Shown here: positions 42,174 to 42,316 of the stretch, in pieces
Numbering within the stretch: the stretch's first letter is position 1
Layout: each line of letters opens with the position of its first letter
Virus record (IMG/VR): IMGVR_UViG_2897842695_000001
Coordinates: 31,652-95,651 of that record
Length of the DNA stretch: 64,000 nucleotides
Reading direction: 5' to 3' (one strand)
Source: a virus
Lineage: Duplodnaviria; Caudoviricetes
Translations under genes and position numbers: made by a program
The notes under the pieces: model-generated
The model's database searches: none
The model's input: the letters and a program-made list of their open reading frames with translations, nothing else
What the model was told of the DNA's origin: nothing

Positions 42174-42202
42174 TTGATCTGGTTCGGAATGGGTTTTATA
42201 CT
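42174..42202 (+). promoter_or_regulatory. sigma70-like promoter of the Qrr-like sRNA
   Basis: TTGATC (42174-42179), 17 bp, TATACT (42197-42202); GTTCGGAATG box in the spacer. Confidence 0.7.
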
Positions 42203-42209
42203 CCACCCC

Positions 42210-42316
42210 GACAAGGCAGCGATGTTTTGTTAACTAGCCAACTGACGTTGATATGTGGGGATACGGACTCTCTTTCCCCATTCCGCCGGATCTCATGATC
42301 ACGGCGGTTTTTTTTT
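42210..42316 (+). ncRNA. Qrr-like small RNA
   Basis: CTAGCCAACTGACGTTG (42234-42250) matches the conserved Qrr core as recalled; four hairpins ending in CCGCCG...CGGCGG-T9; own promoter; no ORF. Confidence 0.8.

Follow-up and report, generated by a model that had tools for sequence, protein, structure and literature searches.

A Qrr-like small RNA gene in a P1-like Vibrio phage-plasmid, with predicted pairing to the host luxR leader

Can a phage carry the seed of a host quorum-sensing small RNA, and, if it does, on which host mRNA would the seed act and when would it be made? The question is raised by a short intergenic unit in a 64,000-nt stretch of viral DNA (from IMG/VR record IMGVR_UViG_2897842695_000001), here referred to as the window, in which the original prediction saw a Qrr mimic under a sigma70-type promoter. 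The window belongs to a phage-plasmid of the P1 type, whose host resembles Vibrio coralliilyticus. Over the 2.6 kb compared, it is identical to a 95,651-bp plasmid (pTHAF191c_d) of three Vibrio sp. THAF strains, and matches to ParA/ParB, baseplate, tail, holin, and endolysin proteins, together with a P1-style pacA-pacB/c1 layout, identify it as a P1-like phage-plasmid. The best match to the host's second chromosome among 285 Vibrio genomes was G181, with 100% identity over 1400 bp, and the LuxR-family protein of G181 is letter-identical to one labelled Vibrio coralliilyticus. This genome lacks the phage region and encodes four Qrrs above the Rfam cut-off, one of them adjoining luxO; the host copies score 81 to 114 bits.

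The elements that had been claimed for the unit are all present on the plus strand: TTGATC at 42174-42179, a 17-nt spacer, TATACT at 42197-42202, the 17-mer at 42234-42250, and a T9 tract at 42308-42316. The RNA itself would be about 108 nt long (42209-42316, with a predicted 5' end), as judged from its fold, an alignment to the Rfam Qrr model, and an RNA-seq contig. RNA folding of 42209-42317 reproduced the four hairpins (-38.7 kcal/mol; z, -3.93; equalled by 0/200 shuffles), and the reverse strand folded worse (-31.5; z, -3.05), with the loss of hairpin 1. Hairpin 1 (42210-42231) is unlike Qrr SL1 in sequence and is probably protective; SL1 protects Qrrs against RNase E, and this role rests on structure and not on sequence (excerpts of PMC3730234). 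The 17-nt core, which spans a single-stranded stretch and hairpin 2, equals the Rfam consensus and the host Qrrs. It is followed by a phage-specific extension, ATATGTGGG (42251-42259), whose last 5 nt fall within hairpin 3 (42255-42281), and by an intrinsic terminator (42283-42316) made of a hairpin and a T-run, as are the ends of the related slots described below. This terminator, which is bulged, was missing from the list returned by the promoter/terminator scanner. As had been predicted, the unit is free of ORFs of at least 60 aa (42174-42316), and eight frames of 24 to 63 aa overlap 42150-42340 when all table-11 starts are allowed.

Positions 1 to 108 of the Rfam Qrr model (RF00378) align end to end with 42209-42317 at 20.7 bits, against a cut-off of 50, and by this check, which had been proposed with the prediction, the unit is not a member of RF00378. 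The score is low because only the core and the overall shape match the model: the core is identical at 17/17 positions, and the further parts of the longer Qrr core, GGGUCAC upstream and UUAGUGAA downstream, are missing. The corresponding E-value is 0.22 in 501 bp and 0.010 in the whole phage, and the whole window gave 0 Rfam matches at the gathering threshold. Judged by its sequence, the unit would work like a Qrr yet stands outside RF00378, from which it departs in score and in promoter. Could the 17-mer then be a chance match in an intergenic region with two terminators? An E-value of 0.22 is near those of other spurious matches, and chance alone does yield the exact 17-mer when a collection is very large (no sRNA context surrounds 6 of the 10 IMG/VR matches). 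Against this stand an expectation of just 6.9e-6 for the exact 17-mer in the window and the conserved slot, the extension test, and the depth peak presented below, by which chance is largely refuted and left scarcely credible. We regard it as very probable that the unit is a real sRNA.

The core pairs, by computation, with the leader of luxR (vcpR) beside the ribosome-binding site. The leader was taken from G181, a same-species genome and not the lysogen's own chromosome I; it is identical across four closely related genomes. Duplex energies computed on the entire RNAs carried no information, as the true host Qrr stood at 195/200 shuffles, and seed-length segments were therefore used. The extension is absent from host Qrrs and is a perfect 9-bp complement of the host-species leader, its helix lying one bulged base from the core helix. 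The duplex of core plus extension with the leader reached -31.5 kcal/mol, compared with -24.6 kcal/mol for the host Qrr. With the core held fixed, extensions (12-mers) that equalled the phage's numbered 0/3000 when drawn from the genome and 11/3000 when shuffled. A 9-bp perfect extension arises at 7 of 191,282 phage positions, and the extended site occurs once in the 5.7-Mb G181 genome, at the luxR leader. No other window of the phage genome paired as well (best, -28.3 versus -30.7), and of the 40 Vibrio luxR leaders recovered, 34 paired better with the phage segment than with that of the host Qrr. The bases 3' of the core also pair with the V. diabolicus luxR leader, the first leader examined. 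When intramolecular structure was counted, this gain disappeared: cofolding gave -13.6 kcal/mol for the phage RNA and -14.3 kcal/mol for the host Qrr, because the extension is partly locked in hairpin 3 and in a hairpin of the leader. Opening costs 12.4 kcal/mol for core plus extension versus 2.6 kcal/mol for the core alone. All that the extension does may be to compensate for the missing Qrr bases over the ribosome-binding site.

The phage RNA cannot pair with aphA in the host-type register. Another register reached -30.7 (3/60 shuffles) versus -35.6 (0/60) for the host Qrr and requires hairpin 1 to be open. The host aphA leader (L133) holds an imperfect complement of the phage extension, and core plus extension reached only -16.3 kcal/mol there, a pairing probably too weak to matter. 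The published dissection of SL1 and SL2 agrees with this split, in which the luxR pairing is kept and the aphA register is lost: deletion of SL1 abolishes aphA activation and leaves luxR repression, which requires SL2 alone (PMC3730234, in part). In logic, the nearest relative is Qrr1, which like the phage RNA lacks the 5' nucleotides needed for aphA (same excerpts). Pairing with the luxO leader did not rise above shuffles either (-12.7 kcal/mol, equalled by 170/300), a weak test in which the host Qrr itself reached just -18.0 (21/300). Thus, the claim that a discrete phage sRNA keeps the luxR-pairing core is borne out by the 17/17 core and the computed leader pairing, and full equivalence to Qrr is not, given the missing 5' sequence used for aphA and the luxO result. 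We consider it probable that luxR is a target.

Further evidence comes from related phage-plasmids. Fifteen loci in about six sequence classes were compared (L013-L024, L027, L053, and L126); L029, L127, L128, and L052, the last of which is too short, were left out of this count. In 15/15 slots, a TT-starting -35 hexamer at the same offset is followed by 2 nt, a 9-bp motif, exactly 6 nt, a TAnnnT -10 hexamer, and then a 72- to 134-nt stretch to a T-run. The expectation that the seed would be conserved in such relatives stood in part. A significant partial core, matching at 12 to 14 of 17 positions, is present in 11 of the 15 slots; hairpin 1 and the 3' half vary between classes, and the core therefore outlasts its flanks in 3 of the 6 related classes. 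The exact 17-mer was found in none of the 15. The match is 14/17 in L020/L021, including a 14-nt exact run, 14/17 at another position in L022/L023, and 12/17 in seven V. alginolyticus-type loci (p, 0.003 to 0.028), these p-values being slightly high since the null samples each locus with its own slot. In L022/L023, both luxR-pairing helices are kept, and of the three bases changed, two have no partner in the luxR duplex and one is paired. No significant core was detected in L014, L017, L053, and L126. Among more distant P1-like relatives, L127 and L128 match the core at only 11/17 positions, and L029 has no annotated lysin at this position.

A V. campbellii phage-plasmid (L014:2570-2645) retains the promoter-hairpin-terminator slot with a 72-nt RNA that has no Qrr core, which suggests that the slot may be a cassette with exchangeable seeds. 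Such persistence of the slot where the core is gone is also what might be seen if the sRNA were real and its main target were not luxR: another mRNA of the Qrr regulon, an anti-phage gene, or the divergent lysin promoter, controlled in cis through a shared operator or divergent transcription. The relatives share a sequence with ACU(G/A)ACGUU(G/A)A at its centre, and pairing with luxR is poor in several of them. The RNA of the L027 type, the commonest relative, was matched by 99/200 shuffles on its own host's luxR leader, compared with 9/200 for a true Qrr; this and the 4/15 slots without a core mean that the family may have other or changing targets. In addition, Qrrs bias the lysis-lysogeny outcome of phage VP882 through an OpaR-independent, undefined target (PMC11315295, in part). 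For the window, however, a main target other than luxR would leave unexplained why the RNA has a host-specific 9-bp complement whose only site is the luxR leader, and the phage genome offered no better target. We consider it quite unlikely here and retain luxR as the probable target of the window's RNA.

The gene neighbourhood raises the question of which strand is active. The sRNA gene is divergent from an endolysin (amidase) gene (41590-42141, minus strand; PHROG 435 and annotation), which is followed by a holin-like gene (41264-41587, minus strand; PHROG 3427), and it is convergent with a 117-aa gene that has no family match (42342-42695, minus strand). Back to back with the sRNA terminator lies a minus-strand terminator (42331-42353) that ends the upstream late (baseplate) operon and so separates the endolysin-holin genes from it (42141-42331, minus strand). 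As this terminator is convergent with the sRNA, the lysin must have a promoter within the interval; no clear minus-strand promoter or late motif was found there. It could be, then, that the minus strand is the one that works, as a lysin leader or read-through RNA whose 17-nt Qrr complement acts as a Qrr sponge or as a sensor tying lysis to cell density, the likeness to luxR pairing being a capture relic. The host Qrr pairs with the minus strand at -46.2 kcal/mol, the bases unpaired in the luxR duplex remain Qrr-identical in the window and in L020/L021, and every phage Qrr-like element that we found adjoins lysis genes. There is a parallel in QrrX, a sponge of Vibrio cholerae, since the minus strand here would pair with the same conserved Qrr domain; QrrX, however, is chromosomal and antisense to Qrr, whereas the promoter and terminator of the window read in the Qrr sense (PMC9732341, in part). 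The promoter, the U-tail, and hairpin 1, which contains G-U pairs, read on the plus strand only. The scanner lists no sigma70 promoter on the minus strand of the slot, where the best late-motif score is 6.2 bits versus 12.7 to 18.1 for the training sites; the extension is unable to pair with Qrr; and the Qrrs of lambdoid phages are co-directional with lysis genes. On this evidence, a working minus strand is very unlikely, and a plus-strand sRNA is the better account of the locus.

When would such an RNA be made? Host and plasmid Qrrs have a TGGCAC-type -24/-12 (sigma54) element, in place of which the window has -35 and -10 hexamers, and in this the prediction of a sigma70-type rather than a sigma54 promoter is supported. 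Taken alone, the promoter is not above chance, as three sigma70-type promoters were found in 40500-44000 and 5.3 were expected. Its spacer holds a 9-bp motif, GTTCGGAAT (42182-42190), that has 21 exact copies in the 95.6 kb of the phage versus 0.5 to 0.7 expected; the endolysin ORF, which starts at 42141, lies 41 bp downstream of it. Several copies sit between the -35 and -10 hexamers of early-operon promoters, for example, before record genes 18277, 12569, and 10541; several also precede late genes, in the opposite orientation. An inverted pair directly precedes a 292-aa gene that is convergent with the terminase genes (pacA/pacB), as c1 is in P1. Its product matches phrog_1678 with an E-value of 3e-4, a family that P1 C1 matches at 2.6e-140, and matches P1 C1 directly at 0.021 (BLASTP), so that C1 homology is weakly indicated by sequence. 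In four of five genomes tested, the spacer variant tracks the genome's own genome-wide variant: two phages have 18 copies each of the variant in their slots, and two others have 26 and 27 copies of a second variant that is in theirs. The fifth spacer holds a third variant. The C1-like protein diverges in step with the motif variant (49.7%, 43.7%, and 30.3%).

P1 C1 represses lytic genes via 22 dispersed asymmetric operators (PMC8546580, in part). The phage resembles this system in its approximately 20 dispersed asymmetric sites over sigma70 promoters, the paired site before the c1-like gene, the convergence of this gene with pacB, and the shared PHROG, and differs from it in the sequence and length of the motif (9 to 12 bp versus 17 bp); the protein similarity is remote, and binding is presumed (AF234172; excerpts of PMC8546580). 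GTTCGGAAT is probably a C1-type operator. It could also bind an activator, and activation in the lysogen is possible; with either repression in lysogeny or lytic activation at GTTCGGAAT, the RNA would appear to be tied to the phage's own programme. We hold it to be rather likely that the sRNA is under lytic-switch control. A reading of the spacer motif as a P1 Lpa-type -22 late element was rejected, as there is no consistent -10 in the late-gene direction and a second motif precedes the late genes. This motif, TCCCCGTC, has 10 copies in the whole phage genome versus 0.28 expected. It occurs at window positions 7091, 14263, 34493, 43933, 46050, and 49139 (minus), mostly on the late strand and shortly upstream of structural genes, and is a candidate late-control element.

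The phage encodes other putative regulators. One, of 142 aa, has a domain resembling the C-terminal domain of RNA polymerase alpha (38819-39247, minus strand; NCBIfam E, 1e-10); it is encoded right after a 560-aa probable capsid gene and is possibly a decoy or a phage transcription factor. An Rrf2/IscR-like regulator (E, 6e-21) is encoded at 61115-61462 and a PadR-family regulator at 50200-50697, both on the minus strand. AphA is PadR-like, and the phage PadR-family protein may also touch quorum sensing. Across the whole phage genome, GCTGGTGG, which we take to be the E. coli Chi site sequence, has 89 copies versus 4.6 expected, and a family of G-rich 9-mers, possibly iterons, is enriched with eight to nine copies.

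RNA-seq data provide some evidence on expression. Four RNA runs of one study contain about 70% of the words of the region. The phage in one of them, X5, is 98.7% identical (38 of 3000 positions differ), and no difference falls within 42195-42307, where about 1.4 were expected, which is not significant. A 49-nt X5 contig over the core (42220-42268) has a depth of 799.5, compared with 142.2 and 72.7 in the flanks (5.6- to 11-fold), and 42220 and 42268 each mark the end of a contig that bears an adapter. A short, abundant RNA thus covers the core in X5, in contigs that give neither the RNA ends nor the strand directly. The adapter behind 42268, which we take to be of the second-mate type, would point to plus-strand RNA if the library was dUTP-stranded, a hint that speaks against a working minus strand.

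X5 is not known to be induced, and its high depth could come from uninduced lysogens. It is thus conceivable that the element is a moron expressed in the lysogen, making a luxR-repressing RNA constitutively and rendering carriers low-density-like, with the motif serving only the divergent lysin gene or acting in activation. The canonical -35 and -10 hexamers fit such a role, and Qrr overproduction favours lysogenic conversion by phage VP882 (PMC11315295, in part). On the other hand, all 15 slots have the motif within the spacer at one and the same register, it is equally placed in the early-operon promoters named above, and the late-gene flanks in X5 have a depth of 73 to 142, hence some lytic transcription or DNA must be present. 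Because the spacer holds a phage-wide regulatory motif, the RNA is more likely a product of the lytic programme than a constitutive product of the lysogen. The constitutive, lysogen-wide mimic that the original prediction implied was therefore not upheld, and constitutive expression from a moron seems unlikely.

The reading that we prefer, with a probability of roughly 0.58, is a phage-regulated plus-strand sRNA, driven by sigma70 and acting in trans like a Qrr with a single target: in infection or induction it would use Hfq to repress vcpR/luxR, with aphA activation and luxO feedback both absent. As the promoter anatomy suggests, host sigma70 RNA polymerase would transcribe the sRNA, sigma54 and LuxO~P being dispensable. 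The genome-wide regulator of the phage, probably a C1-like repressor, would bind the spacer, and the RNA would be made just after infection and after induction and be damped in the stable lysogen. Together with Hfq, it would pair with the vcpR leader via the Qrr core and the extension, as computed, and is proposed to lower VcpR in this way; owing to the missing Qrr 5' sequence, there would probably be no aphA activation and no luxO feedback. The infected cell would leave its high-density programme, of which phage defences are a part in other vibrios. High-density regulation turns down a phage receptor in V. anguillarum (PMC4471561, in part), and CBASS is under the control of the high-density regulator in V. 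cholerae (PMC10653837, in part). Two purposes would fit such an RNA: the lowering of density-dependent defences and the biasing of lysis versus lysogeny.

Qrrs of 43 to 75 bits also adjoin lysis genes in two other Vibrionaceae phage groups. Four of the 10 IMG/VR 17-mer matches are Qrrs above the cut-off (62 to 75 bits) in 40- to 44-kb contigs of lambdoid phages, with a shortened SL1 and no sigma54 element. Near-complete Qrrs of lambdoid phages, all without a sigma54 promoter, lie at L005:1090-1182 (minus), L006:5833-5925 (minus), L007:1752-1848 (plus), L011:7674-7770 (minus), and L028:5078-5165 (plus). In L006 and L011, the Qrr directly precedes, on the same strand, a small gene and an endolysin gene, and terminase genes follow; in L006, L011, and L028, the Qrr is just upstream of same-strand lysis genes, and its terminator could therefore attenuate lysis transcription. 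The cultured Aliivibrio phage vB_Alvi_H905, which is one of these 40- to 44-kb lambdoid phages, carries an unannotated 43-bit copy at the same place by its lysis genes. A prophage that has P2-like head genes and a C4/isrK region carries a Qrr-like RNA of 47.6 bits, convergent with its lysis genes (L132:1215-1318, minus). Since the window's unit scores under the Rfam cut-off, routine annotation would overlook it.

Plasmid copies were found in V. cidicii (L030:3978-4079), V. vulnificus (L031:3977-4080), and V. navarrensis (L135:1501-1576). The V. vulnificus and V. cidicii Qrrs are full and sigma54-type (94 to 95 bits), and umuD lies downstream in V. vulnificus and V. navarrensis. Two further candidates, L033 and L034, were dropped because their neighbours are chromosome-like. 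When the unit was compared by blastn with 50,697 records of phages, nothing matched, and an endolysin-based scan of IMG/VR gave 0 confirmed loci. A host Qrr query matched 85 phage records, and among the matches listed, only H905 was convincing (E, 4e-7), the other 39 rows having an E-value of 0.4 and lying inside CDSs. Two gapped pattern scans yielded no new lineage, the first giving 7 matches (2 known and 5 without sRNA context) and the second 23 (5 at loci already known, the other 18 lacking context or lysin/capsid neighbours). The difference between the phage types suggests that their Qrr-like RNAs may have independent origins.

How does the element compare with known systems? With Qrr (RF00378), it shares the length of about 108 nt, four hairpins, the identical 17-nt core at the same position, a U-tailed terminator, and the predicted luxR-leader pairing. 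Unlike Qrr, it is phage-encoded and scores well below the cut-off; hairpins 1, 3, and 4 are unrelated in sequence, the promoter is sigma70-type with a phage motif, and there is an additional luxR-complementary tract and no luxO pairing. The sRNAs of VP882 and the lambda sRNA are similar in being phage sRNAs for which an action on host mRNA by way of host Hfq is proposed. These RNAs (those of Sprenger et al. 2024 and Silverman et al. 2025) reportedly neither copy a host seed nor have a quorum-sensing master regulator as their target. Host quorum sensing is also tapped or silenced by the VqmA homolog of VP882 and by a Pseudomonas phage anti-activator (Shah et al. 2021), but these are proteins that act on autoinducer sensing or on a transcription factor, whereas an RNA acting on translation is proposed here (PMC11945551, in part). 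No phage Qrr was found in a literature search that covered mainly openly accessible papers, and the portions consulted of two reviews (PMC13501541 and PMC11945551) make no mention of one.

More broadly, we put forward, as a tentative view, that temperate Vibrionaceae phages took up the Qrr seed at least three separate times (in P1-like, lambdoid, and P2-like phages), always beside lysis genes and freed from sigma54 and LuxO. In the P1-like lineage, the seed would have come under the regulator of the phage's lysis-lysogeny switch and been adapted to the luxR leader of the host species, giving a feedback-free RNA off-switch for host quorum sensing in infection, used for counter-defence or for biasing lysis versus lysogeny. 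VcpR controls proteases and biofilm in a coral pathogen (PMC11837519, in part), and carriage of the phage could therefore alter host behaviour. The known means by which phages read or block quorum sensing are proteins; writing into the circuit with a copy of a host RNA would be a new route. With a natural mimic, its seed variants, and the cultured phage vB_Alvi_H905 with its fuller copy at hand, it becomes directly testable whether a phage benefits at all when it imposes a low-density state.
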